Positions 1 through 61,712 of a stretch of 64,000 bases of DNA are shown piece by piece. A model generated the notes under the pieces. That model was given only the letters and a program-made list of their open reading frames with translations, had not been told where the DNA came from and ran no database searches. The stretch's first letter is position 1. Each line of letters begins with the position of its first letter. The position numbers were made by a program, and so were the translations under genes. Origin of the DNA: Candidatus Kerfeldbacteria bacterium (GTDB lineage Bacteria > Patescibacteriota > Patescibacteriia > UBA9570 > XYC2-FULL-38-9); NCBI GenBank assembly GCA_016182555.1, contig JACPGJ010000007.1:53-64052 (forward strand), in the 5' to 3' direction.

Positions 1-2776
1 TGGTTGCTTTGATCAACAATCCATCAGTCATTGAAGCAACGGTTTCTTCAGCATTGTCAATCACGATACCAGCCTCGTATGAACCTGCCGCAGCATTCGT
101 TGTTGCTGCTCCAGTAATCGTCAAACCAAACATGTCTCCATCAGCATCATTACCAGTGAGTAAAATCTCTGCTGCTGTTGCGTCTACAGCTGCTGTTGCT
201 CCATCATTTTGTGTTAATGCCACATTGATACCATCAACTGCTGCATTTCCTGCATTCACATCCAAGTCAACGATACCAGCAGTTTCTGTCATTGCTGCGC
301 TTGCATTCACGACCAAACCTTGTGAAGCTCCTGCGGCTAATGTCATGGTCTGCGCATCTCCTGCTGCATCTGGCGCTTGAGTGACGTTGCCATCAGCATC
401 CACATCAAAGTCGGTTAAATCAATCACGCCGGTGGTACCCGTAATGGTATTTGCACCGATATTCAATGCATTGGTGATATTGGAATCTGACACATCAATT
501 GCATCCACAATATCTGCATCTGTTGAAGATGTACTGTCAATCAAGATACCATCGGTCACAACGCTTGCCGTATTCTCAGCATTCACTAATTTCAACAATG
601 ATTCAGTTACTGTTGTTGAAGAAGTTGCTGCATTGGTCAACACCATTACATTTTGCGCATTTGAAGTGGTCGATTCAGTGTTCGTTAATGAAAAACTTGC
701 TAAATCAAATGCCACATCACCTTGACCAGCATTGGTCATGGCAAAATTTTCTGTGGTCAAGAACGACATATCAACGTCGCTGTTGAAAGCGGATGTTGAA
801 TTACTGGTCACTGTACCATTAAATGTGTTGTTTCCATTTCCAGTCAAACCTCCAGAAACCGTTAAGTTCGAGTTTGTTGTTGTTGCTGCACCTAACACAA
901 TCGATGATGCATTTGTTGCACCAATATTTAATTGGGCTGAAGATGCTCGGTCAAGACCACCGTCTGCATACATCACACCATCTGCTTCCAAATTACCTTC
1001 AATCATGACATCTTCACCATTGAGCGTGCTAGTTTCTGTTGCGTTACCAATTTCTAAGTTACCAGTGGTAATTGTTGTTAAATCAGTTCCTGTATCATGA
1101 GAAACGGTCATTCCACTATTTGCGGTAATTGTTCCACCAGAAGCGGAAAGTGTTAATCCACCGGCTACATCAAGTGTTGTACCACTATTGATAGTGAGCG
1201 TTCCAGAAGTAAAGGCATCTGACGCATCTGAACGTAAGAACGAAGTACTATCTACAGCATCCAGTGTTCCAGCATCTGTAATTGCTCCACTAAATGTTCC
1301 ATTGACAGTTAAATTCCCATCAAACACAGCATTTCCATCAAATTCCGATGTTCCTTCAACATAAAAATCTTCACCATTTTGGGTTGTACCGGGAGTTCCA
1401 TTACCCACTTTTAAATTGCCAGTAGAAACAACGAAATCATCGGTGGCTGCAGCAAGAGTGAGGGTATAATCACCAGCACCATCAGTAATACCACCATCTG
1501 CGTATGTCGTACCGCTATTTCCAGCAACGAATGACCCATCAGAAAACACATTGCCTTCTACACCAACAGTTCCGGCAACAAAGAGATCGTCGCCACCCAT
1601 GGTGAAACTCGCATTTGACAATGTTTCTGTGGTTGATGTTGAACCACCAACAACTAAATCTTCATCAATACGACCATCACCAGCATCCAGAATCAATCCA
1701 CCTGTAGAAACAGTTAAACCATCACTGAGTAAAAATAAACCCAATCCATCGTCATACGTTAATGAATGCGCTGTTGTGCTACCATCATCAGCAAAATTGA
1801 GCGCAACATCTTGATCTGCTGCTGTGGAGCTTGAATCTGAATCGAGTGTAAGAGAAGTAGAAGTACTACCAGAAAGATTCATGTCAGCAACTGCACCAGC
1901 AACATTAAGAGCACCGTCTACTTCCAACCCACCTTCAATATAGACATCTTCACCATCGAGCGCAGTACTTGGCGTACCATCTCCAACTGAAATATTTCCA
2001 GCCACTTGTGCGGAACCGTCGGCATAAATTGTTCCTTCAACACCTGCATCACCCGCAACAAAAATCTCACCACCATTCACGTTAAAATCAGAATCAGAAA
2101 TTGTTTCAGCAGAATCTCCAACTAATACATCAGAATCAAAAACGCCATCTCCTGAAGCGGAAACGGTCGTGAATGAACCAGCAGCGGCAGTTGTACCACC
2201 GATAACCGTATTGTTAATTGTTCCAGACGACACGGTCAGCGCATTCACTACCTCAGCATCACCAATAGCATCATCATCCAAGGCAAGGCCACCAGCAACG
2301 GTGACATCACCATCAAATGTTGCATCATCGGCAACCGTTAATGTGGTTGCGCCAACTTCACTCTCTGAAATAGTTCCACCAGTAATAGTGAGTGCGTCGA
2401 CAACCGCTGCATCAGTAATGGAATTTTCTGGTAAAGAAATAGTGCCTGCTTCGACTGTTAACCCATTTTTCGCCACGACTTCACCGGTAAAAGTTGCTTT
2501 CTTTCCACCTTTTACAATAAGAGCATCAGCAATTTTGACTGAGCCTTTACTGTTATACAGTGAACCTTGCAAATTAATGCCGTCCACGAACACTGGGGCG
2601 GCGGCGTTAATTAAACGTTGCTGCGCACCGCGCACGCTTGCTCCTTGCAAGTTTGTTGCGACTCCCTGGATAGGGGCCGCATTAGCGAGAGAGGGGAGTG
2701 CAATAAAAAACCCACCAATAAGAATGGTGGCAATCATTGCCCAAACTACTCCTCGCAATCCTCCGGTTGCACTCAT
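1..2776 (-). CDS. Large repetitive secreted surface protein (adhesin / beta-helix-like Thr-Gly-Val-Asp-rich repeats), truncated by the window edge
   Basis: The minus-strand frame is open from ATG at 2776 to position 1. N-terminus MSATGGLRGVVWAMIATILIGGFFIALPSLANA looks like a signal peptide. A spot-check mid-gene gives GGTITANSGMTVSHDTGTDL repeats. Plus-strand ORFs 9..2792 in three frames are compositional shadows. The ORF track lacks it because there is no stop inside the window. Confidence 0.6.
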   Translation of the reverse strand, partial: MSATGGLRGVVWAMIATILIGGFFIALPSLANAAPIQGVATNLQGASVRGAQQRLINAAAPVFVDGINLQGSLYNSKGSVKIADALIVKGGKKATFTGEVVAKNGLTVEAGTISLPENSITDAAVVDALTITGGTISESEVGATTLTVADDATFDGDVTVAGGLALDDDAIGDAEVVNALTVSSGTINNTVIGGTTAAAGSFTTVSASGDGVFDSDVLVGDSAETISDSDFNVNGGEIFVAGDAGVEGTIYADGSAQVAGNISVGDGTPSTALDGEDVYIEGGLEVDGALNVAGAVADMNLSGSTSTSLTLDSDSSSTAADQDVALNFADDGSTTAHSLTYDDGLGLFLLSDGLTVSTGGLILDAGDGRIDEDLVVGGSTSTTETLSNASFTMGGDDLFVAGTVGVEGNVFSDGSFVAGNSGTTYADGGITDGAGDYTLTLAAATDDFVVSTGNLKVGNGTPGTTQNGEDFYVEGTSEFDGNAVFDGNLTVNGTFSGAITDAGTLDAVDSTSFLRSDASDAFTSGTLTINSGTTLDVAGGLTLSASGGTITANSGMTVSHDTGTDLTTITTGNLEIGNATETSTLNGEDVMIEGNLEADGVMYADGGLDRASSAQLNIGATNASSIVLGAATTTNSNLTVSGGLTGNGNNTFNGTVTSNSTSAFNSDVDMSFLTTENFAMTNAGQGDVAFDLASFSLTNTESTTSNAQNVMVLTNAATSSTTVTESLLKLVNAENTASVVTDGILIDSTSSTDADIVDAIDVSDSNITNALNIGANTITGTTGVIDLTDFDVDADGNVTQAPDAAGDAQTMTLAAGASQGLVVNASAAMTETAGIVDLDVNAGNAAVDGINVALTQNDGATAAVDATAAEILLTGNDADGDMFGLTITGAATTNAAAGSYEAGIVIDNAEETVASMTDGLLIKAT

Positions 2777-2975
2777 AGGTTTTGGATTTTAAGTTTTGTT
2801 AATCTTTTTATTAGATAATTTTTCCAAAATATATTTTGGAAAACTATTTCGATGATAACACAATTGTTGAGTGTTGTCATAGGGTTAGTTATCCACAGAA
2901 AAAATTTCAACACACGCAAACATAAAAAAAATTTCTGAATGGGGGAAGAAAATAATATCGAAGAGAGAAAAAATG

Positions 2976-3386
2976 TTATTGCGTTCGTGTCGCGCGATCA
3001 ATCGCTTGGTTGACGAGCGCATCAGCCGCTGCATTGCGTTCACGAGGGATGTGGAAAAATTTTACCGCACCCATTGTGGAAATGAGTTGATGGATTTGGA
3101 GAAAAATTTTCGCTAAGTGTTGATCTTTTACACGATACTCTCGATTCATTTGTTTCACCACTAATTCACTATCTAAATAACAATCCACAGTTTGTGCACC
3201 GATGTTTTTTGCTGTGGATAACGTTTTCCACAGGGCAGTATACTCCGCTTGATTGTTCGTTGCCGTACCAATATATTCTGAAACTTGTGCCAGCACAGAC
3301 CCGGCATCATCATAAACAATACCACCAATTCCCGCTGGGCCTGGGTTTCCGCGCGCACCCCCATCGGTAAAAATTTTTACATTCAT
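2976..3386 (-). CDS. rnhA: Ribonuclease HI
   Basis: TDGGARGNPGPAGIG ... NNQAEYTAL ... HIPRERN..AD.LVNQA motifs. ATGA overlap with upstream recJ. Confidence 0.9.
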   Translation of the reverse strand: MNVKIFTDGGARGNPGPAGIGGIVYDDAGSVLAQVSEYIGTATNNQAEYTALWKTLSTAKNIGAQTVDCYLDSELVVKQMNREYRVKDQHLAKIFLQIHQLISTMGAVKFFHIPRERNAAADALVNQAIDRATRTQ

Positions 3387-5083
3387 GATTTTCGTAAATC
3401 TTTTAGCACTAATTGAATTTCACGGTTACCGTTCCATTCGTTCACTCCCACTGTGTACACGATGTCCACGTGGTCACCAGATTTTAATTGCTCGGCATAT
3501 TCACCTAAGCCAAAACCGATACACGAACGTCGCGTACCGTTATGAGATATTTTCAAACGAAGATGGTCACCCTTTTTTCCAATCGCGGAAATATCATCTA
3601 TGACCAAATCCATACTGGCAAACACGGGCTCTGGATTCCCTTCTCCAAACGGGGCAAACTGCTCCAGTGTTTCTATCAACGTCCAATCCACTGCCGGCAA
3701 GGCTAATGTGCATTCAATGTGCACACTCTTTCGTAAATCTACATCCTTCAACTGTTCAGTCGCCCGCGCACGCATGCGCTGCCGAAACGCTTCCAATGCT
3801 TCAGGATTTTTGAGCGAAAATCCACAGGCCATGGGGTGGCCACCATACTTACGAAATAACTCATCCATCGACTGCAACGCATCCACTAAATTGAATTGTT
3901 CAATCGACCGCCCAGAACCAACAATCTCCCCTCCCATATTCGTGATTACAAATGTGGGCCGGTAAAATGCCGATGCAATTTTGCCCGCAACCAAGCCCAC
4001 CAAACCTACCGGGCATTCGTTCGCTTCTACTACAATCACCGATTCATTCTGCTGCTGCTCTGCTTGCACCATTGCTATTTTCGAAATACGTTCAGAAATT
4101 TGTTGACGTTCGCGGTTGGTTTTTCCTAAATTTTCTGCCATCTCCGCAGCACGTTGCGCATCTTCTTCCACGAGCATATCAAAAGCCATGTTCGCATGTT
4201 TCACCCGACCAGCCGCATTGATATGCGGGCCAATTTTAAACGCAATCGTTTCTGTAGTCGCGGTTTGCGGCTCTACACCCATGACGGTAAATAATTCACG
4301 CAAACCCAAACGTTGGTTTCGGCGCAACACCACTAACCCATATTTCACAAATACTCTATTCTCGCCAGTAAGTGAGACGAAATCGGTAATGGTACTAATC
4401 GCTACCATATCTAACATCCATTTTTCAAAGGCTTCTCCCAAATTGTGCTTGCGAATGAGCGCCTGCGACAACTTAAACGACACACCAACGCCAGCGAGAT
4501 ATTTAAACGGATATGTTTCTTCAACCAGTTTGGGGTTCAACACGGCGCACGCACGCTCAGGTAATACCGGTGGCTGGGAATGATGATCCGTGACGATTAC
4601 TTGCATTCCCAATTGCACCGCTTCGTCAATTTCGGGCGCATTCGAAATACCGCAATCAACCGTAATAATAAGGTTCGTGCCAATATCATGCAACGACTGC
4701 ACGGTATGCATATTCAATCCATACCCTTCAGTGTCGCGGTGCGGCAAATACACATCAACTTCGGCACCAAGGGCTTGCAACGTTTTATACAATACGGCAG
4801 ACCCACAAACACCGTCAGCATCGTAATCACCATGAATGACAATTTTTTCGTGGCGTCGGATGGCCTGTTCAATGCGCGCAACTGCTTTGTGCATATCACG
4901 AAACAAGTAAGGATCGTGCTGGTCTTGGCCATAATCTGGTAATAAAAAACGATCTACCTGTTCTTGCGTGGTCATATCACGATTCGCTAACAATTGTACA
5001 ACCGTTGGATGCAATTCGGGAAAACGCGCCAACAATTCTGGTGCGGCGGGTTCAGCCATTTTCCATTGATAGTGTTCGTTCAT
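3383..5083 (-). CDS. recJ: Single-stranded-DNA-specific exonuclease RecJ (DHH/DHHA1)
   Basis: IHGDYDADGVCG and VTDHH motifs. Length 566 aa. Confidence 0.9.
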   Translation of the reverse strand: MNEHYQWKMAEPAAPELLARFPELHPTVVQLLANRDMTTQEQVDRFLLPDYGQDQHDPYLFRDMHKAVARIEQAIRRHEKIVIHGDYDADGVCGSAVLYKTLQALGAEVDVYLPHRDTEGYGLNMHTVQSLHDIGTNLIITVDCGISNAPEIDEAVQLGMQVIVTDHHSQPPVLPERACAVLNPKLVEETYPFKYLAGVGVSFKLSQALIRKHNLGEAFEKWMLDMVAISTITDFVSLTGENRVFVKYGLVVLRRNQRLGLRELFTVMGVEPQTATTETIAFKIGPHINAAGRVKHANMAFDMLVEEDAQRAAEMAENLGKTNRERQQISERISKIAMVQAEQQQNESVIVVEANECPVGLVGLVAGKIASAFYRPTFVITNMGGEIVGSGRSIEQFNLVDALQSMDELFRKYGGHPMACGFSLKNPEALEAFRQRMRARATEQLKDVDLRKSVHIECTLALPAVDWTLIETLEQFAPFGEGNPEPVFASMDLVIDDISAIGKKGDHLRLKISHNGTRRSCIGFGLGEYAEQLKSGDHVDIVYTVGVNEWNGNREIQLVLKDLRKS

Positions 5084-5520
5084 TGTTGAGCTGCTGTTCG
5101 TTGTTGATGAGTCAAAAGTTGTTTCACTTCATCTAGTAAATCACGTTGGTTCTGATGTTTCAAGCGGCGTTTGGCTTTTTCAATGGGGAGCCATGCATAA
5201 CGCGTATGTTCATGAGAAATGCGCACACGGTCGCGTGTTTGAATCAAAAAATAAACTACTTTTCGGCGAATCAGTTCGCCTTGATAATGAAAATCATAAT
5301 GCATGGAACGACGAAATCCTTCCACTAAGTGAAACCGTTTAATTCCCGTTTCTTCATAAATTTCACGGGTAAGCGTATCAATCTCTCGTTCGCCCTGCTC
5401 CACTTTCCCTTTCGGAAATTCCCAATATTGATTAAGCTGTTGAAATACTAATAAAATATGTCCACGAGTATTCACAACAATGGCGCCAACGCTTTTAGAG
5501 TTTTGTGGTGTCTGTTTCAT
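5080..5520 (-). CDS. NUDIX hydrolase
   Basis: Nudix box GKVEQGEREIDTLTREIYEETG. The ORF track extends to 5658 but that would overlap prs by 58 nt. The internal ATG at 5520 (MKQTPQN) has AAGGAG upstream. Confidence 0.75.
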   Translation of the reverse strand: MKQTPQNSKSVGAIVVNTRGHILLVFQQLNQYWEFPKGKVEQGEREIDTLTREIYEETGIKRFHLVEGFRRSMHYDFHYQGELIRRKVVYFLIQTRDRVRISHEHTRYAWLPIEKAKRRLKHQNQRDLLDEVKQLLTHQQRTAAQQ

Positions 5521-16435: not shown

Positions 16436-16902
16436 ACGCTACGTATTATAGCGCAATCTGAACAGTATTTCAATAGCCACACATACTATCTGTAACACAA
16501 CGCCATTCTAACCGCATGCGTAGCGACGGCTCTTTTTTTTGTGACTTGCCTAATATTAGGCAAAATATTGTTGGCGAATTTGAGACGGCTAAAAAATCTG
16601 TGGATAACTTTGATAAAAATCATTTTTCTTACTTGCATAAAAAAATATTCGATCTATACTGCATGATAGATACTATTTTTTCAACACTAACTGAACAGAT
16701 TATTTTTTAAAGCACCTTCTCCAATCACCATGCATTGATTCCACCCAACCAGCGGTAAGGCGATGCCTCGTTAAGAGCATCCACCCAAATCTCCTTTCCT
16801 CTGGTGAATCATTCTGCATTGTGCAGATGAATAATCAGAATCTTTGGTTGTTGGATAGATCCACCAACAAGGATATTCATTGAATTGGAAAGGAGAAGGA
16901 TC

Positions 16903-27556: not shown

Positions 27557-27680
27557 ATATTCCTCCGTATATCATTATATTATCATAGAAACAATATAAT
27601 ATACAGCAAAAATGCCCTTTTGTCAATGCTTCCACTTGTGCACAATTGAATCAAATTTTTTGGCTAATATTAGCCTAAAT

Positions 27681-30383: not shown

Positions 30384-30941
30384 CTATTCCATCAGTGGAT
30401 CGCGATACTTGCGATCTTCTTTTGCTTTACGTGCTAACAATTCACGAATAAAATCCGCTTTATTCATCTTCTGCTTCTCGCTGCGCCAGGTTAAATAGCG
30501 GTCCACCCGCGGGGACAAACGCAATGTGTATTTTATTGATACCGCTTCATCATGCTCTTGCCGCAACGGGTCATGCATACCAATAAAATGATTCACCGCT
30601 TCCGCCAAGCTCGTTTCCATATACGAAAATGTTTTAACCGGTTTGGGTGTCGCTTTTTTCCGAATATATTTCAATAACAAACGCGGAGATTGATTCTTTG
30701 CATACAAACACAATGTCGGCTTATCGGCTAAAATAGCTTGAGCCAAAATAAAATGCATCAACGGATTCGGTTTCGTAATTTCAATAATGAGTAAATCTAC
30801 CTGGTCCAGGAAAAATGCAACGCCTTCGGGCAAGCGTTTTCGTTTGCGAATTTTTTCGGGCGTCAATACCGAAACACCAGCCTCACGACAGGCGCGAAGG
30901 ATAGCACCACCAGTTTTTTCATCATGAATGTAGACTCTCAT
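30384..30941 (-). CDS. Nucleoside 2-deoxyribosyltransferase-like domain fused to C-terminal ribbon-helix-helix-like segment
   Basis: FFLDQVDLLIIEITKPNPLMHFILAQAILADKPTLCLY resembles the PF05014 core. C-terminal RLSPRVDRYLTWRSEKQKMNKADFIRELL is RHH-like. Confidence 0.45.
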   Translation of the reverse strand: MRVYIHDEKTGGAILRACREAGVSVLTPEKIRKRKRLPEGVAFFLDQVDLLIIEITKPNPLMHFILAQAILADKPTLCLYAKNQSPRLLLKYIRKKATPKPVKTFSYMETSLAEAVNHFIGMHDPLRQEHDEAVSIKYTLRLSPRVDRYLTWRSEKQKMNKADFIRELLARKAKEDRKYRDPLME

Positions 30942-31930
30942 CGCCGTTTTTTTATTGATTTTGCTCGTTTCACTGGTTTAACTCGCCTCAAATGTTCTCC
31001 AATAAAATCCTGATCCATGGCGTTTTTTAACTTTGCCAGCACAGATCGCTGACCAGAAAGCCAGGTGAATTTTGCGGCAGCACAATCAGGCGTTAACCCG
31101 GTGATCTTCGTTACTCGGCCATTGGTATACAACAAAACAGCAGCAGAGGTTAATACCAATGTTGGCACCTTTTTCGGCAGCAAGCGCGCCGCAGACACAG
31201 GCAGAGAAATGTGGCGACTATCCAAAATAAGGCCACGCGTTTTCTTTTCAACTTGCAGATCTTTGATATCCCCAGCCGTTAACACTTGATATAAGACGCG
31301 TTCACCGTATGCGACGTAAATCTCTGGCTTAACCCGTTCAAGCGCGTGCTGATTTTCTAATAGCTGAATGCCAAAATCAATATACCCGCCACCCACGCTG
31401 CCATGAGCACTACTGGCTGGATAAATACCCGGATGATCTTTGTCTTCACTCACCAATGCATGGGTGACCGGAATAATGGAAGAACCAAACGCGATAAAAC
31501 TGCCGGCCGCCTGAGCCGTGACCATTTGTGTGGCATTCACAATACTCGCTTTCAAACCAATATCTGGATATTTCGCTCCTGCAGCAATGGTAGCCAGATC
31601 ATCGTGTGAAATGGTGCTAATGACGATCGGTTTGCTGAGACGGCCCAACATAAACGCGAGCAAGTTCGCGTTATAGAGCACGTGCGCATAATCCATGGTG
31701 ACAATAAACCCATCGTAGCGGTTCCATTCGCGCTGAATACGCCGAGCTATGCGTTGTAAAATTTGCGGTTGGTCGGGTGCGGTGTGGCCAGCAATAAACA
31801 TCGGCTCTGCGGTGGCGACCATTTCTAATTCAATAAACTCCTTGTTCCACCGGTTCAAGGCATTTTGGTTTTTTAATGGATGTTGTCGACCGCCGGCATA
31901 CAGCAAGGCAATCTGGTGCTTTTCAAGCAT
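30938..31930 (-). CDS. Divergent asparaginase/glutaminase-family-like protein
   Basis: IALLYAGG and IVTMDYAH occupy the positions of the TGGTIAG and HGTDTM motifs but are degenerate. Confidence 0.45.
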   Translation of the reverse strand: MLEKHQIALLYAGGRQHPLKNQNALNRWNKEFIELEMVATAEPMFIAGHTAPDQPQILQRIARRIQREWNRYDGFIVTMDYAHVLYNANLLAFMLGRLSKPIVISTISHDDLATIAAGAKYPDIGLKASIVNATQMVTAQAAGSFIAFGSSIIPVTHALVSEDKDHPGIYPASSAHGSVGGGYIDFGIQLLENQHALERVKPEIYVAYGERVLYQVLTAGDIKDLQVEKKTRGLILDSRHISLPVSAARLLPKKVPTLVLTSAAVLLYTNGRVTKITGLTPDCAAAKFTWLSGQRSVLAKLKNAMDQDFIGEHLRRVKPVKRAKSIKKRR

Positions 31931-31994
31931 GCAGTGATGATACTGTGTTTTTTGATGTAATGCAACATTTTTCTGGTTTTATACAGTTGACAAA

Positions 31995-32040
31995 TAGTAT
32001 ACTTTAGATTATACTGATTACGAGTATACTATTTATAACC
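31995..32040. promoter_or_regulatory. Array of TATACT boxes (~12-bp phasing) in the divergent promoter region
   Basis: TAGTATACTTTAGATTATACTGATTACGAGTATACTATTTA seen directly. Near-identical copy at 33471-33512. Confidence 0.5.
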
Positions 32041-32049
32041 GCTAAAAAT

Positions 32050-33444
32050 ATGAAATTCATTAATAGGCACAATGAGCTCTCCGCATTAGAAGATCGTTTT
32101 CGAAAAAATCAATCCGAATTCTTTATTGTGTATGGAAAACGACGTGTCGGAAAAACAGAACTGATTAAACAATTCATAAAAGATAAGCCATCAGCATACT
32201 TTTTAGCTGATAAACGAAGCATGAAACTGCAATTACAAGAAGTGGGACGAATTATTGGTGAGCAATTCAACGATGAAGTGCTGATGCGTGCCGGTTTTGA
32301 AGAATGGTTGGAGGTATTTCAATATTTGGGAAAACATGTGCGCCCAAACAAACCGTTTATTTTCGCGATTGATGAATATCCGTATCTGGTGGAAATAGAC
32401 AAATCGATCAGCTCCATATTTCAAAAAGGGTGGGATGAGTATCTGAAAAACAGTGGAGTGTGCTTTATTCTCTCTGGTTCGAGTATCGCCATGATGGAAT
32501 CTGAAACGCTCATCTACACTGCCCCGCTCTATGGACGAAGAACCGGTCAGCTGCTGTTGACTCCCCTATCGTTTACCCAAGCCCATGAATTTTTTCCTGC
32601 CACATCATTCCAAGAATTTTTATCGATATTTACCATTATGGGTGGCATGCCCGCCTATCTACTTCAATACCATGCGCATAAAAGCAGGCAAGAAAATATG
32701 AGGGATGCTATTTTTGAAAAAACAGCATTTTTACACAATGAAGTGGAGTTTACCTTGAAAGAAGAACTGCGTGAACCAAAACAATATATGGCGATTATTG
32801 AAGCGATTGCCAAGGGTTGTGCGCAATTTGGTCATATTTCGAACGCAACTGGTTTAGAAAAAAATACACTCACAAAATATCTGCATGTATTACAGAAGTT
32901 ACAATTGATCGCGCGTGAGGTTCCGGTGAGCGAAAAACACCCACAGAAGTCACGTAAAAGTATCTATACTATTTCTGATCAATTCTTTCGTTTTTGGTTT
33001 CGGTTTGTGTATCCATATAAAAGTGACATTGAAATTGGACGCTTGAATGAAGTAGAAAAAAAATTACATGAAGAATTTTCGCTATTAGAAAGTGTCACGC
33101 ATGAACAAATCTGTCGTGATGATTTGGTGAATCAGTATAGCAAACAGTTATTTCCCTTTGAACGCGTGGGGCGTTGGTGGAATAATGACGAAGAAATTGA
33201 TATTGTGGCGCTCAATACACCAACAGATTCCGTGCTCTTTGCCGAATGTAAGTGGTCAAATAAGGCCGTGGGGACAAATGTATATGACGATTTGAAACGG
33301 AAAGCTGCGCTGGTGGATTTTGGAAGCATGAATCGAAAAGAATATTACGCGTTATTTAGCAAAAGTGGTTTTACGAAAGCGATGATTGAAAAAGCCAAAA
33401 AGGAGAAAGTGCTGCTCATTGAAGAAGATCGCTTACTGAAATAA
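32050..33444 (+). CDS. AAA+ ATPase (archaeal-ATPase PF01637-like + DUF234)
   Basis: FINRHNELSALEDRF ... YGKRRVGKTEL Walker A. Length 464 aa. Confidence 0.8.
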   Translation: MKFINRHNELSALEDRFRKNQSEFFIVYGKRRVGKTELIKQFIKDKPSAYFLADKRSMKLQLQEVGRIIGEQFNDEVLMRAGFEEWLEVFQYLGKHVRPNKPFIFAIDEYPYLVEIDKSISSIFQKGWDEYLKNSGVCFILSGSSIAMMESETLIYTAPLYGRRTGQLLLTPLSFTQAHEFFPATSFQEFLSIFTIMGGMPAYLLQYHAHKSRQENMRDAIFEKTAFLHNEVEFTLKEELREPKQYMAIIEAIAKGCAQFGHISNATGLEKNTLTKYLHVLQKLQLIAREVPVSEKHPQKSRKSIYTISDQFFRFWFRFVYPYKSDIEIGRLNEVEKKLHEEFSLLESVTHEQICRDDLVNQYSKQLFPFERVGRWWNNDEEIDIVALNTPTDSVLFAECKWSNKAVGTNVYDDLKRKAALVDFGSMNRKEYYALFSKSGFTKAMIEKAKKEKVLLIEEDRLLK

Positions 33445-33470
33445 ATGATATGTGGCTATTTATCATTTTT

Positions 33471-33512
33471 TATACTATTTAGTATACTTTCGATTATACT
33501 GTTTACATACTG
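33471..33512. repeat. Second phased TATACT box array (TATACTATTTAGTATACTTTCGATTATACTGTTTACATACTG)
   Basis: 22 of 24 core positions match the array at 31995-32040. Confidence 0.5.
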
Positions 33513-33537
33513 ATGCTTGTTGCTGGTGGGTATTTTC

Positions 33538-33589
33538 TTGATATTCTAAATAACAACATAAGCACACATCTTGTTATTTAGAATATCAA
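33538..33589. repeat. Perfect 19-bp inverted repeat TTGATATTCTAAATAACAA / TTGTTATTTAGAATATCAA with a 14-nt spacer
   Basis: Seen directly. No U-tract follows. Operator- or MITE-end-like. Confidence 0.5.
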
Positions 33590-33970
33590 TTGCGTTAGAT
33601 TAATGATGAATGGCATTTGGTGCCTGCCCCGGTGTCGGCGACAAAACAGATGATTGACTATCAAGAACGCATTGCGGCAAAGCGCAAAAAAACCAGTGTG
33701 CCCTATTACGACGAATATGGCTCGCGCCTGGTTGCTATGCAGAAAAGTTTAAATAATACCATTTTGAATATTTGATAAGGAATTTATAGAAAAACAGACT
33801 TCTACTGATTTTTATTTTGGCTAATATTAGATAAATAATAACAGACTGTGCATAAAATTCATTGAAAAGTATGATGAAGTATGATAAATTAGATGAGCAA
33901 AAATTCGTTTTTTGAAAATTTTTTGGTTTTACCACCTAAGCCACCCAGCAAAGGTGGAAGGAGCAGACAA

Positions 33971-35713
33971 ATGAATTCGAATGAAATCGCCCAGATTCTG
34001 GGCAGCGGTAAAAGTGAGACCCAGCCCTTCGGTTTCCGGGTGCTCGTTGACCCGACCGAGGGTTTTGAGCGTTATGAAACCGTATGGGCGGAGAACGGAG
34101 GCCTGCGGGCCTTCTTGAGGAAGCTGGAAGAGATCGTTGCTCATTATGGTTGGGGCGCAGTCAAGCACCACAACCATAACAACGATTTCGCCAGTTACTT
34201 CACACACCTGGGAGTGCAATCCCAGGGTTCGGCCCTTCATCAGATACAGGCGCTCGTGCGGAATCTGGAAACACAGACGCAGGGTCCATCTCGGTGGGCC
34301 CGAACTGCAAATGTGTATCAGATCTTTCCGAGAGCGTTCAACCTCTCGGGCTGGAGGGAATTCCACGACAGACCACCCGGCACCGCAAAACCGTTTTTCG
34401 AAGAATGGGCTGCGGAGGACTTCGAAACCCTCAACGACCTCGGCTTCGATACGGTCTGGCTGATGGGGACTTTCCCTATCGGCAAGCGCGGCGCCAAGGG
34501 TGGCGAGACCGGAAATGCCGGCTCGCCCTATGCAACTACCGACCACCAGGCGCTGGAACTCAGCCTGGGGACCGAAGCGGACTTCAAACGCTTCGTTGAC
34601 ATGGCCCACGAGTGTGGAGTTCGGGTGATCCTCGACATCATCCCGAACCACACCTCGCTGGACTCGCGGCTCCTGCGCGAGCATCCAGAGTGGTTCCTTC
34701 ACCACACAAACCCGGTCGCCGGAGAGACCGCGCCCTTCGGTTCGTTCGAGCATATCGACGGAGAAGGCAAACTCTGGTGGATCCGACTCGCAGGATGCGA
34801 GTACTACGGCAAACTCACGCCGTGGTGGGATGTTGCTCAGTTGAACCTGGCACATCCTGCCGTGCGGGAGTACGTCGTAACTACGGCCTGCCGCTGGATT
34901 CGAGACTTCGGCATCGATGGGTACAGAATCGACATGGCCTATCAGCTCCTCAACAGCTACTACTCTCGCAACTGGAAGGTCCAGATGCCAGAGCGGGAAC
35001 TGCTTGAGCAGATGATCACGGCCGTGCGCGAACTGCGCCCCGATGCCGGCTTCTTCGGAGAAGCCTACGGCCGCGAAGAAGACCTTTTTCTTTGCGGATG
35101 TGACACGACACTGCAGAAATGCACGTGGTTGGACGGGCTTCGGTGGCACCAGGGCCGTGGATGCAACGTGGAGCGGATCCGAAAGGAAATTCGCAACGCG
35201 GCAACAATCCACGCCCAAACCGACGGCCCGGGTGGCTACATCTTCGTGGGAAACCACGATGAAATGCCACACACGGAGGCGTACGGTCCGTGGACACGAG
35301 GCTGCGCAGTCCTCACGATATGCCAGCCAAACGGACTGCTGATCTTCAACGGTCAGGAGATCGAATTCAGCCAGCAGTCGAAGGACGACTGGCCGAAACC
35401 GATTCCGTTCACGCGGCCGGTCAAGATCGACTGGGCAGGTGCTGACCCGGAAACCGCAAGGTTCTACCGGTGGGTGTTTCGTACTTCGAAGAGCATTAGA
35501 GAAGAGCTCGGAGATGTACAGATGCACCCGCTGGAAGATCTCAACGGCAACTGGGTGGGCTACGCGCTCACCGGCAAAGACACCACGACGCGGTACCTCG
35601 TCATCGCCAACCCAACGGACCGGGCAACGATGGCGCATGTGTACCACACCGATCTCGGGATCAATCACTCGACACCACTCATGCCATACGGCTACAAAGT
35701 GGTTCGGGTCTGA
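33971..35713 (+). CDS. GH13 alpha-amylase-family glycoside hydrolase, GC-rich gene
   Basis: GH13 regions DIIPNHTS, GYRIDMAYQ, GEAYG and FVGNHDE. ATG 33971 follows GGAAGGAG. ORF-track start 33893 lies in AT-rich flank. A 579-aa open antisense frame reflects high GC. Confidence 0.85.
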   Translation: MNSNEIAQILGSGKSETQPFGFRVLVDPTEGFERYETVWAENGGLRAFLRKLEEIVAHYGWGAVKHHNHNNDFASYFTHLGVQSQGSALHQIQALVRNLETQTQGPSRWARTANVYQIFPRAFNLSGWREFHDRPPGTAKPFFEEWAAEDFETLNDLGFDTVWLMGTFPIGKRGAKGGETGNAGSPYATTDHQALELSLGTEADFKRFVDMAHECGVRVILDIIPNHTSLDSRLLREHPEWFLHHTNPVAGETAPFGSFEHIDGEGKLWWIRLAGCEYYGKLTPWWDVAQLNLAHPAVREYVVTTACRWIRDFGIDGYRIDMAYQLLNSYYSRNWKVQMPERELLEQMITAVRELRPDAGFFGEAYGREEDLFLCGCDTTLQKCTWLDGLRWHQGRGCNVERIRKEIRNAATIHAQTDGPGGYIFVGNHDEMPHTEAYGPWTRGCAVLTICQPNGLLIFNGQEIEFSQQSKDDWPKPIPFTRPVKIDWAGADPETARFYRWVFRTSKSIREELGDVQMHPLEDLNGNWVGYALTGKDTTTRYLVIANPTDRATMAHVYHTDLGINHSTPLMPYGYKVVRV

Positions 35714-37120: not shown

Positions 37121-37212
37121 AAAAGCCCATTCGGGTCATCTGCTTGACAGGTCAGGAAGTTAATCATATACTTACATAAGTAAGAATATCTTACAATTTA
37201 CCCCACCCATTT

Positions 37213-39538: not shown

Positions 39539-40666
39539 TTAATATTCAAGACCACTCAAATAGCTGGTCGCATTTCGAATATCAATGCCTCCAACAGATC
39601 GTTCCTGTGCTAACTCTTTTACCAGTTGAATACTCGGAACGCCATATTTTTTGTGAAAATAGTGTAGAGAACGTGAGAGATTTTTTTCTTTCCATTTTGT
39701 TTCAAGAAATAATTGCGGTTCGCCATTGCGTACAATACAAAAATCAACCTCTTGCCCCTGTTTTGTTCTCAGATAATGGAGCGCATGCAGCTTACCCGTG
39801 TAATCTGTTTTTCCACACACATATTTTAATAAACTAAGTGCAACCATGTTTTCAAAACGCGCACCATTATCACCCTCAACAAGCCCTGTGTCATAAAAAT
39901 AAATCTTCGGCTCTTTTAAAATAGAGCGCGCAATATTTTTTGAATACGGCGTGACGCGAAAAATAATATACAACGCTTCTAATATATCTATATATCTTTT
40001 CACTGTTGCTGGGGATGCTTGAACATCGCGGGCAATGGAAGAATACGATACACTTGAACCAACGGAGCGACGTAACAAATCAAAAATAATTTGCATTGTT
40101 TGAATGTCATTAACGCGTTCAAAGTCTAAAACATCTTCACGAATCAATCCGTCTGTATATTGCTTACGCCAACGTTGCGCCTCTTCATCGGTTTGAGCAA
40201 GCAGTGGTTCCGGGAAACCACCACGTTGTATTAACGCATCAATGTCATTGGCATAGGGTGTACCTCGTAATTCAGCAAGAGAAAATGGCAACAGACGATG
40301 CACAAAAAAACGCCCGGCCATAGAATCGCCTGTTTGTCGAAATGTGTTCAAGCGTGCACTTCCCGTAACCAAAATATGCAATTGTTCTGGTTTGGTATCG
40401 TATACACCTTTCAAAAAATTTTTCCACCCCTTCAACTTATGCAGCTCATCAAGAATCAACAAATCGGTTTGTTGCGGCCACTCTATACGTTGAATAACGC
40501 GACGATGATCAATATTATCGACATTTAAATAGGTCACCATCGAAAATGAACCTTGTGTACCAATATGTTTTGCCAGCCATGTTTTTCCTGCTTGACGTGG
40601 ACCAACAAGAAACACCATCTTTTTTTGCAAATCTTGGAGGATAAGCTGCTCTTGTACTCTTTTCAT
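39539..40666 (-). CDS. AAA ATPase (AAA_14 + DUF4143)
   Basis: VFLVGPRQAGKTWL Walker A. DUF4143-like C-terminus. Confidence 0.8.
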   Translation of the reverse strand: MKRVQEQLILQDLQKKMVFLVGPRQAGKTWLAKHIGTQGSFSMVTYLNVDNIDHRRVIQRIEWPQQTDLLILDELHKLKGWKNFLKGVYDTKPEQLHILVTGSARLNTFRQTGDSMAGRFFVHRLLPFSLAELRGTPYANDIDALIQRGGFPEPLLAQTDEEAQRWRKQYTDGLIREDVLDFERVNDIQTMQIIFDLLRRSVGSSVSYSSIARDVQASPATVKRYIDILEALYIIFRVTPYSKNIARSILKEPKIYFYDTGLVEGDNGARFENMVALSLLKYVCGKTDYTGKLHALHYLRTKQGQEVDFCIVRNGEPQLFLETKWKEKNLSRSLHYFHKKYGVPSIQLVKELAQERSVGGIDIRNATSYLSGLEY

Positions 40667-40743
40667 ATATGACTATTATACACTATATTGCAAAATAGTC
40701 AATACTTTTTATCAAAACACTTCAAAATAGTCACTTTTGTGTA

Positions 40744-52493: not shown

Positions 52494-52539
52494 GGCAATA
52501 CGATATACTCTGTGGTGCGTCATCGTATATCGTATTGCC
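52494..52539 (+). terminator. Perfect 14-15-bp hairpin (GGCAATACGATATA...TATATCGTATTGCC) between rplT and tRNA-Asp
   Basis: Seen directly. Only a short TTT follows. Terminator or processing structure. Confidence 0.4.
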
Positions 52540-52545
52540 CCATTT

Positions 52546-52619
52546 GGGGGTGTAGCTCAGTTGGTTAGAGCGCTTCCCTGTCACGGAAGAGGCCGCGGGT
52601 TCGAGTCCCGTCACTCCCG
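52546..52619 (+). tRNA. tRNA-Asp (anticodon GTC)
   Basis: Cloverleaf: acceptor GGGGGUG/CACUCCC with G73, U8-A9, D-arm GCUCAGUUGGUUAGAGC, anticodon stem CUUCC/GGAAG, loop CUGUCAC, T-arm GCGGG-UUCGAGU-CCCGU. CCA not encoded. Confidence 0.9.
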
Positions 52620-52650
52620 CAAACGGAACCTTGTTCGAACGAAAAAAGAA
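52611..52650 (+). repeat. attL-like direct repeat: tRNA-Asp 3' end plus downstream flank (core CTCCCGCAAACGGAA)
   Basis: Copied imperfectly at 57411-57450: 15-nt identical core and about 36 of 42 positions overall. Confidence 0.6.
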
Positions 52651-61247: not shown

Positions 61248-61712
61248 TTACACCGTTAAATCATTCTCTGCCTTGATATCTACCGCATACTGTATGAGCC
61301 GTTGTAACACCGCCGCTGCAGTGGCGATAACAAATGAAGCAATAATAATAACCAGCGCGATGACTATTACACCTGGTGCGTCGTCTTTGTCAGCAACATA
61401 AAATATGTACGGCAGACCAACTGAATACAACCCACTGATGATAAGCGCGCAATATTTTATTACCCGCAACCCCTTCACCGATAATTCTGAAAAGACTGTA
61501 TTGTTGTCGATATAACTCAACAACTGTAACGTTTGATAGAGCGCAATAAAAAATGGAATTGCTGGTAGATACATCCCAATAAAAATAGGGCGATAACTTT
61601 CAAAATTTCCCCCAATAATTGCAGGGGGTAAGGCAAAAATGCACAACGCAAGGACGACAAGCCCAAGCAAGACCACGGCTCCACGTAAGATAATTGTTGA
61701 CCCGTGTTTCAT
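61248..61712 (-). CDS. DUF2975-like membrane protein
   Basis: 4 TM helices. The gene order DUF2975-HTH-DUF4153 is a known conserved triad. Confidence 0.55.
   Translation of the reverse strand: MKHGSTIILRGAVVLLGLVVLALCIFALPPAIIGGNFESYRPIFIGMYLPAIPFFIALYQTLQLLSYIDNNTVFSELSVKGLRVIKYCALIISGLYSVGLPYIFYVADKDDAPGVIVIALVIIIASFVIATAAAVLQRLIQYAVDIKAENDLTV

Follow-up and report, generated by a model that had tools for sequence, protein, structure and literature searches.

In a 64,000-nucleotide stretch from a Candidatus Kerfeldbacteria bacterium (contig JACPGJ010000007.1; the whole stretch is here called the window), a gene for a DUF234-type ATPase is preceded by an array of three TATACT-containing boxes, and a partial copy of this array lies just past its stop codon. 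Judged from sequence and distribution, the upstream array is best read as a conserved promoter-operator module attached to a very widespread defence-candidate ATPase. More specifically, and with a probability of roughly 55%, it is proposed to be the ATPase gene's own portable promoter-operator, which travels with the gene and is probably self-repressed. The array matches a sigma-70-type promoter, its boxes and their spacing are maintained among diverged homologues, and the full arrangement adjoins a single gene family, whose product is predicted to be capable of binding DNA.

Architecture of the upstream array

The ATPase gene (rightward, 32050-33444) and an asparaginase-like gene (leftward, 30938-31930) share a divergent intergenic region that holds the array, and the sequence leading to the ATPase start codon reads TTTTATACAG-TTGACA-AAT-AGTATACT-TTAG-ATTATACT-GATTACG-AGTATACT-ATTTATAACCGCTAAAAAT-ATG. 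A -35 hexamer, TTGACA (31987-31992, plus strand), is followed by box 1, the 8-bp palindrome AGTATACT within the promoter spacer (31996-32003); by box 2, ATTATACT (32008-32015, plus strand), whose TATACT at 32010-32015 forms the -10 hexamer; and by box 3, again AGTATACT (32023-32030), at about +1 to +10 of the predicted transcript. Together with the leading TTTTATACA, the -35 and the three boxes make up the form of the module that is duplicated in the window (31977-32030, plus strand), as defined by a gapped alignment to 33468-33511. TATACT arrays do lie on both sides of the gene, as a preliminary description of this DNA had reported; the uniform 12-bp phasing that it gave does not hold upstream, where the hexamers start at 31998, 32010 and 32025 and are spaced 12 and then 15 bp apart.

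Sigma-70 promoters have a -35 element close to TTGACA and a -10 element close to TATAAT, 16-18 bp apart on the strand of the downstream gene, and transcription starts about 7 nt past the -10. The upstream array has this form in its hexamers, spacing and strand: TTGACA-17-TATACT agrees with the consensus at 11 of 12 positions and lies 34 nt 5' of the ATPase start codon. Around box 2, AAATAGTATACT (31992-32003) and AGTATACTATTT (32023-32034) form a perfect 12-bp inverted repeat (31992-32034), a dyad that arises largely because each box is itself palindromic.

Across the window the bare hexamer TATACT is over-represented (49 occurrences against 17.4 expected), and in many cases TTGACA or a near match lies about 17 bp 5' of it, for example at 37167, 29499 (minus strand) and 16655, so that TATACT looks like a favoured -10 hexamer of the source genome, which belongs to the candidate phyla radiation (CPR). 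The enrichment of the bare hexamer follows from this preference, and specificity consequently lies in the array rather than in the hexamer. Paired boxes, TATACT-N6-TATACT with at most one mismatch, occur seven times against 0.13 expected, five of them inside the two arrays, and no further three-box array exists within the 64 kb. The palindrome AGTATACT is present six times against 0.37 expected; three copies lie outside the arrays, at 3237, 52784 and 61748, the last in the promoter region of the gene at 61248-61712.

Conservation among homologues

Eight homologue contigs were picked by protein similarity alone, at 55-77% identity to the window ATPase. They are labelled by NCBI as Omnitrophota, Uhrbacteria, 'Flavobacterium' and 'Pacearchaeota', the others being metagenome contigs, and the neighbouring genes differ at every locus: a Trp repressor and an acetyltransferase; AbiEii and a helix-turn-helix protein; FtsX, a tRNA and RadC; IS110 and a cold-shock protein; release factor 2; and UDP-glucose dehydrogenase are among them. 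The promoter TTGAC[A/T]-N17-TATACT is retained in all eight, and six have all three boxes at equal positions; in one of these six (L006) box 3 reads TAGACT, and in another (L048) boxes 1 and 3 are altered.

The pattern TTGACNANTAGTATACTTTNNANTATACT was scanned over 241 million metagenome records and yielded 14 loci. All 12 with enough downstream DNA have a DUF234 ATPase (49-77% identity), which starts 29-104 nt 3' of the pattern. The motif search that the preliminary description had called for therefore ties the array to one gene family, and the array is not ubiquitous. Twelve distinct arrays align over 44 bp with zero indels. Invariant in all 12 are TTGAC of the -35, TAGT-TACTTT at box 1 (whose fifth base is A in 11 of 12), TATACT at box 2 and AGTA--CT at box 3, and the box spacings of 12 and 15 bp never vary, giving the consensus TTGAC[A/T]-A-N-TAGTATACTTT-NN-A-N-TATACT-N7-AGTATACT. 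The linker between boxes 2 and 3 is free in sequence (GATTAC, ATTTAT, AATCGT, ACCTAT, ACTCAC, ACTTTA, ACTTAC and ACTTGT occur). The AG that precedes TATACT is invariant in boxes 1 and 3 and free in box 2, where the base before the hexamer is G in most relatives and T in the window and its nearest relative (L003, the homologue of 77% identity). Boxes 1 and 3 are thus constrained as palindromes and not as -10 hexamers. This, with the fixed spacing among diverged homologues, bears out the earlier suggestion that a simple promoter does not fully describe the upstream array.

Mean pairwise identity falls from 84-86% in the 44-bp array to 63-66% in the coding DNA and to 24% in the 44 bp directly upstream of the -35; by these alignments conservation is higher in the module than in the protein that follows it. 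No conservation was found 3' of the stop codon among the compared homologue loci. Since neither the 5' flank nor the DNA past the stop codon is conserved, the conserved unit is exactly the array plus the open reading frame (ORF). Palindromic sites that overlap the core promoter and are co-inherited with the gene, as in autoregulatory operators, are accordingly seen in homologues of 50-77% identity in unrelated contexts.

Two other scans returned no further arrays. A loose 18-base pattern gave 18 matches in viral contigs, none with TTGAC directly 5', a box 3 or an adjoining ATPase. A scan of genome contigs with AGTATACTTTNGATTATACTG, a pattern built from the window's two copies, produced one chance match, in Robiginitalea, and is uninformative because the pattern is too strict even for the 77% homologue.

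As for the dyad, boxes 1 and 3 of L048 have changed in mirror fashion (AGTGTACT and AGTACACT), and L006 breaks the pairing. The covariation score between the two boxes was reached by 24 of 500 shuffles, other measures were unremarkable and only one mirrored change is present; the dyad is at most suggestive of symmetric recognition. The idea of an RNA element was set aside: covariation is weak, and Rfam gave only sub-threshold, miRNA-like matches, which fell on the palindrome at 33538-33589 described below.

Further observations were made at individual loci. In L003, a separate promoter (5090-5150) before an AstE/AspA-family gene, 2.9 kb from the ATPase homologue, has AGTATACT twice, one copy within a perfect 18-bp palindrome, ACTTTAGTATACTAAAGT, which hints that the box is used elsewhere in that genome. 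In L045 (3919-4015), a hairpin with a 13-bp stem lies about 30 nt past the ATPase stop codon, and a perfect 25-bp palindrome, ATAGTATACAAT-T-ATTGTATACTAT, with two GTATAC cores, lies 96-120 nt past it. The protein shared by L045-L047 (P0052) is labelled by NCBI as 'Candidatus Pacearchaeota archaeon'; this archaeal bin label is probably wrong, because the genes around it, for a PCRF/RF-1 release factor and ABC proteins of the FtsX/FtsE type, are bacterial, and the reported presence of the ATPase family in DPANN needs to be viewed in this light.

The ATPase and its predicted DNA-binding capacity

The product of the plus-strand gene at 32050-33444 (464 aa) comprises an AAA+ domain, a lid, a winged helix and a C-terminal DUF234 domain of the PD-(D/E)xK type. 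It matches the Pfam families ATPase_2 (1.6e-22) and DUF234 (6.7e-25), and the PADLOC candidate family PDC-S27 (PDLC04984, 3.3e-47, residues 2-444), to which it belongs by both profile and ATPase/PD-(D/E)xK architecture. An AlphaFold2 model (predicted local distance difference test score, pLDDT, 88.5) is structurally closest to the archaeal ATPases 2QEN and 2FNA; next come Orc1/Cdc6 and origin recognition complex (ORC) subunits, some of them in DNA-bound form. Residues ~243-308 make up the winged helix, which has weak matches to MCM_C, pRN, ORF80 and CasR/Csa3. With this domain and an Orc1/Cdc6-like fold, the modelled product is predicted to be capable of binding DNA. In the C-terminal domain D384 and K401 never vary and E399 hardly does, and DUF234 is listed among the PD-(D/E)xK families (PMC3424549). 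PDC-S27 and PDC-S01 are described in PMC12988326 as abundant, unvalidated single-gene defence candidates in which an ATPase is fused to PD-(D/E)xK, and the PDC-S27 family as abundant in archaea and bacteria. The homologue search of the present analysis shows the ATPase to be widespread among CPR bacteria.

A candidate self-repressed promoter-operator

In the proposed mechanism, RNA polymerase would use TTGACA (31987-31992) with the second TATACT (32010-32015), and the two copies of AGTATACT would be protein-binding sites, box 1 in the spacer and box 3 at the transcription start, with the -10 between them. The most likely binder is the ATPase product itself, which would act through its winged helix and repress its own transcription, so that the amount of a defence-candidate protein with a nuclease tail would stay low and buffered. 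We infer the binder from inheritance, because the ATPase is the sole factor besides RNA polymerase that is sure to accompany the module, the hosts sharing no other neighbour, and repression from position, because the sites cover the spacer, the -10 and the start.

Promoters of more distant DUF234 ATPase clades (33-41% identity) carry boxes of other sequences. On two gut viral-sorted contigs, L054 (37%) has AATAATTC-TTGACA-GAATTATT around the -35 and two more copies, and L057 (34%) has AGTAACT, AGTTACT and AGTATAAT at the promoter. A Cetobacterium plasmid (L078, 41%) has a perfect 17-bp inverted repeat at the promoter, and a Haloferax plasmid (L079, 41%) has TCATTATC twice, 15 bp apart. Such clade-specific boxes would fit co-evolving pairs of regulator and operator.

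Several points weigh against self-repression by the ATPase. The repeated boxes of the distant clades may be no more than the background of AT-rich promoters. In the window's own clade the boxes are dispensable, because box 3 has been lost in L049 and boxes 1-2 in L045. With their centres 12 and 15 bp apart, the boxes do not lie on one face of the helix, and the recurrence of AGTATACT at three window sites and at the other L003 promoter leaves room for a host factor. Apparent conservation is also inflated, since six of the 12 aligned arrays came from a pattern in which 24 of the 44 positions are set in advance; against the protein-sampled loci only, the window array is 75-91% identical. Finally, we know of no experimental characterisation of CPR promoters.

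No prior description of the array was found in the searchable literature on DUF234, PF03008, PDC-S27, AGTATACT or PABY2304, and the passages on PDC-S27 in PMC12988326 make no mention of a promoter or operator. A conserved promoter-operator module for one PDC-S27 clade thus appears to be new to the searchable literature.

The downstream copy and mobility of the unit

Past the stop codon the sequence reads TTTT-TATACT-ATTT-AGTATACT-TTCG-ATTATACT-GTTTAC-ATACT-G. This partial duplicate of the module (33468-33511, plus strand) lacks a -35 and has boxes at 33471-33476, 33481-33488 and 33493-33500 and a truncated ATACT at 33507-33511; with TATACT at 33471, 33483 and 33495 and ATACT at 33507, the spacing of 12, 12 and 11 bp previously reported for a near-identical array is read directly. 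A 27-bp core (31995-32021 and 33480-33506) is identical at 25 of 27 positions and occurs only twice in the 64 kb, where no occurrence is expected. Homology between 31977-32030 and 33468-33511, with two gaps of 6 and 4 nt, has a local score of 50, compared with 19.8 +/- 3.0 (maximum 35) for shuffled sequences. In the downstream copy the 6-nt gap deletes GTTGAC, and with it the -35, the 4-nt gap truncates box 3, and two substitutions are present, the boxes being otherwise intact; its best promoter-like match, TTATCA-17-TATACT, is weak (9 of 12 positions). Both window arrays have GATTATACTG and a leading TTTTATAC, which are absent from L003, and because the downstream array carries these window-specific bases it is a local duplicate. 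It is most likely the scar of a recombination event that installed or rearranged the gene, rather than a second working promoter; it may also act as a decoy or second operator. A relic of a tandem second ATPase gene was considered and rejected, as tblastn gave no signal in 33445-33950.

The earlier suggestion that two arrays bracket a single gene like a cassette survives in part. Bracketing is not a general property, since no second array was found downstream at any of 12 other distinct homologous loci (within 200-260 bp past the stop codon or elsewhere in the fetched flanks). A movable unit of promoter and gene is supported, because flanking direct repeats, each of different sequence, occur at 4 of 13 distinct ATPase loci including the window; among 660 sliding 1395-bp pseudo-genes placed over the same DNA as a control, about five positions unrelated to the ATPase have such repeats. 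From this comparison the unit seems often to be gained or rearranged by duplicative recombination. The window repeats bracket the gene at 1485-1491 bp, and those at the other three loci are target-derived and heterogeneous, from 29 to 254 bp. The L006 type has repeats of 29 bp (97%) and 12 bp, spanning the upstream region and first four codons of RadC. In L040 (stored coordinates 1259-4283) the direct repeat measures 254 bp and is 88% identical: a complete gene for a GT4 glycosyltransferase precedes the ATPase unit, and an ORF of 105 aa that repeats the C-terminus of this glycosyltransferase follows it. The first ~42 codons of the repeat are identical and the remainder has diverged, a pattern consistent with the integration of a circular copy by a single crossover or with homology-facilitated recombination. 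In L052, an Omnitrophota metagenome-assembled genome, a repeat of ~65-85 bp (138-204 and 1685-1892; 82-94%) brackets the unit.

Further repeats occur near these units. The right-hand repeat copy in L052 is split by a 132-bp insertion that has 18-bp perfect terminal inverted repeats (1744-1761, 1858-1875) and an internal hairpin with 37-nt arms, and resembles a miniature inverted-repeat transposable element. In L009, an IS110-family transposase gene directly upstream of the array is flanked by a 40-bp repeat (1318-1357, 2797-2836; 90%), and the contigs L011 and L012 are broken ~450 bp before the ATPase gene seen in L009. Searches for an empty site gave none: the window's asparaginase-like neighbour has no relatives in 5.8 billion proteins, and among relatives of the L006 neighbour RadC, L075 is occupied, L074 starts 4 nt past the ATPase stop codon and L076 has a different upstream gene.

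Two classes of mobile element were rejected. Transposons are marked by conserved terminal repeats and short target duplications of fixed length; the ATPase unit has no conserved ends, the upstream 44 bp being 24% identical, the 3' flanks unrelated and the repeats variable in length. Integron cassettes lie in arrays beside intI and consist of a promoterless ORF followed by attC, an imperfect palindrome 57-141 bp long; the present unit has its own promoter, its flanks are direct copies of that promoter, the nearby palindrome is not repeated at other ATPase loci, and no integrase is present among the 10 ORFs scanned at 30.4-42.1 kb.

Alternative explanations

If the boxes had no regulator of their own and served RNA polymerase alone, they might act as -10 elements that are stacked or bidirectional (TATACT can be read from either strand of AGTATACT), as part of a second promoter (TTTAGA-16-TATACT, a promoter-like match that employs box 3) or as a sigma-dependent pause element where the transcript begins. 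The preference of this genome for TATACT as a -10, often with TTGACA ~17 bp upstream, the position of the window array in a divergent intergenic region and the homologues that function with one or two boxes all agree with such a view. It is nevertheless unlikely, given that the palindrome-completing AG is invariant in boxes 1 and 3 and free in the true -10. Moreover, a sigma-70 promoter puts no constraint on its spacer or on the first transcribed bases, yet both contain the whole 8-bp palindrome, flanking T/A included, at fixed distances, the spacer sequence is conserved at 11 of 11 positions, and divergent transcription cannot account for the conservation, because most related loci have a co-directional upstream neighbour. 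An operator for a host regulator, in which a factor encoded elsewhere recognises AGTATACT and controls a small regulon including the ATPase gene, would explain the three additional palindromes in the window and the two in the other L003 promoter, one of them inside ACTTTAGTATACTAAAGT. Such a regulator is decidedly unlikely, as the module is kept in hosts of differing phylum labels with no other conserved neighbour and the full-array pattern occurs solely next to the ATPase family.

It is improbable that the arrays delimit a mobile single-gene cassette and are used as its ends by the ATPase-nuclease or by a recombinase acting in trans. The repeats that bracket the gene, their excess over the control (about five of 650 positions), the different neighbourhood in each lineage and a protein with both a nuclease-type domain and an initiator-like fold speak for such ends; the array, however, is not repeated downstream at any other locus, the repeats elsewhere are target-derived and differ in sequence and length, and that of L040 resembles an allelic 3' gene end, as left by homologous single-crossover integration. 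Nor is there a recombinase in or beside the window unit, or an empty site among the relatives examined. A bolder variant, in which the promoter-ATPase unit is a self-mobilising single-gene element whose ATPase recognises the AGTATACT boxes and drives its own duplicative insertion, is very improbable; if it were true, the variable-length repeats at 4 of 13 loci, including the window arrays, would be insertion scars, and part of PDC-S27 would be a new kind of selfish mobile gene. The preliminary description had called the phasing iteron- or operator-like; replication iterons, with the Orc1/Cdc6-like ATPase as initiator, are the least probable alternative, with hardly any weight. The fold does resemble Orc1/Cdc6 bound to origin DNA, and dyad-symmetric repeated boxes adjoin the gene, as with archaeal origin recognition box (ORB) elements. 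Plasmid iterons are, however, direct repeats of ~17-22 bp at ~22-bp spacing beside a rep gene and an AT-rich unwinding element, whereas the present boxes are 8-9 bp, overlap the -35 and -10 of a chromosomal gene within 44 bp and are accompanied by neither a replicon, a rep gene nor an unwinding region; the site is an ordinary part of a 293-kb CPR chromosome contig and shows no turn in cumulative GC skew. A probably self-repressed promoter-operator that accompanies the ATPase gene is the preferred reading.

Palindrome and additional features of the window

Beyond the downstream array lies a palindrome with 22-nt arms (33538-33559 and 33568-33589), one mismatch and an 8-nt loop. The perfect 19-bp palindrome noted previously corresponds to the outer 19 bp of these arms. 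No other local inverted repeat in the window is as long, and the 181-nt region around the palindrome folds strongly (z-score -4.8). No link to the arrays or to other ATPase loci was found: the palindrome is unique, with no copies elsewhere in the window or at any related ATPase locus, and belongs to no Rfam family, the matches lying far below threshold. Intrinsic terminators have a G+C-rich stem followed by a run of T; this identity was rejected, as the stem is A+T-rich and lacks a T-run, and no terminator-like sites occur in 31800-34000. An AT-rich gene-end hairpin is the simplest reading, and the weakest part of the account.

The second ATPase gene, of the DUF4143 type (39539-40666), matches PADLOC PDC-S01 (8e-60). 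This gene, also named in the preliminary description, carries no TATACT array, and it was rejected as a second member of the arrangement because its promoter differs. On the minus strand (39539-40743), TTGACT-N16-TATAAT ends 8 nt 5' of the start codon, which would make the transcript nearly leaderless, and the direct repeat TGACTATTTTG lies at 40731-40721 and 40702-40692.

Between 33893 and 36000, G+C content is 55-59% in a gene of the GH13 alpha-amylase family and in the first part of the gene after it, and 36-47% on either side. This step in composition suggests that the DNA was acquired horizontally not long ago, and L001, a contig from an independent Logan assembly, stops right at it, at about window position 34002. 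The palindrome form TTGSCTAATATTAGSCAA is present at three intergenic sites (16546-16563, 27658-27679 and 33816-33835), one just upstream of the amylase gene, and may be the operator of another regulator; its 12-nt core is not significant by shuffling (4 matches, 2.25 expected). At 52494-52539 a perfect 15-bp inverted repeat, GGCAATACGATATAC/GTATATCGTATTGCC, with TATACT inside, lies directly 5' of tRNA-Asp (52546-52620).

Significance and comparison with known systems

The module provides a DNA signature for finding this ATPase clade. Its promoter, to judge from its sequence, apparently works unchanged across CPR classes and other phyla, a rare example that would be useful for expression in uncultured groups, and the recurrent flanking duplications show how single-gene units get shuffled between genomes.

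Phage 21 and e14 integrate in icd and carry a replacement gene end. The L040 unit, between a complete glycosyltransferase gene and a diverged copy of its C-terminus, is similar in this respect; unlike these elements, it is ~1.6-1.9 kb long with one gene and no integrase, and the window repeats its own promoter rather than the end of a target gene. Archaeal Orc1/Cdc6 genes adjoin ORB or mini-ORB arrays, and plasmid Rep genes have iterons and an inverted-repeat operator in their own promoter. The AAA+ and winged-helix fold and the dyad-symmetric boxes directly beside the gene are common to those systems and the ATPase unit, which differs in having no origin context, far shorter boxes, an array that is itself a sigma-70-type promoter and an extra PD-(D/E)xK domain.

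Self-repressed promoters with operators over the -35, -10 and start are known from dnaA P1/P2 with its DnaA boxes, toxin-antitoxin operators and defence regulators of the BrxR/CapW type. Like them, the module has short palindromic boxes in the core promoter of a gene that encodes a DNA-binding domain, and is inherited with that gene. Unlike them, its putative regulator is a 464-aa protein with AAA+, winged-helix and nuclease folds, not a small dedicated repressor, and it has three 8-bp boxes at spacings of 12 and 15 bp. Within PDC-S27, whose models the window ATPase matches, the conserved promoter-operator module is an addition for one clade.

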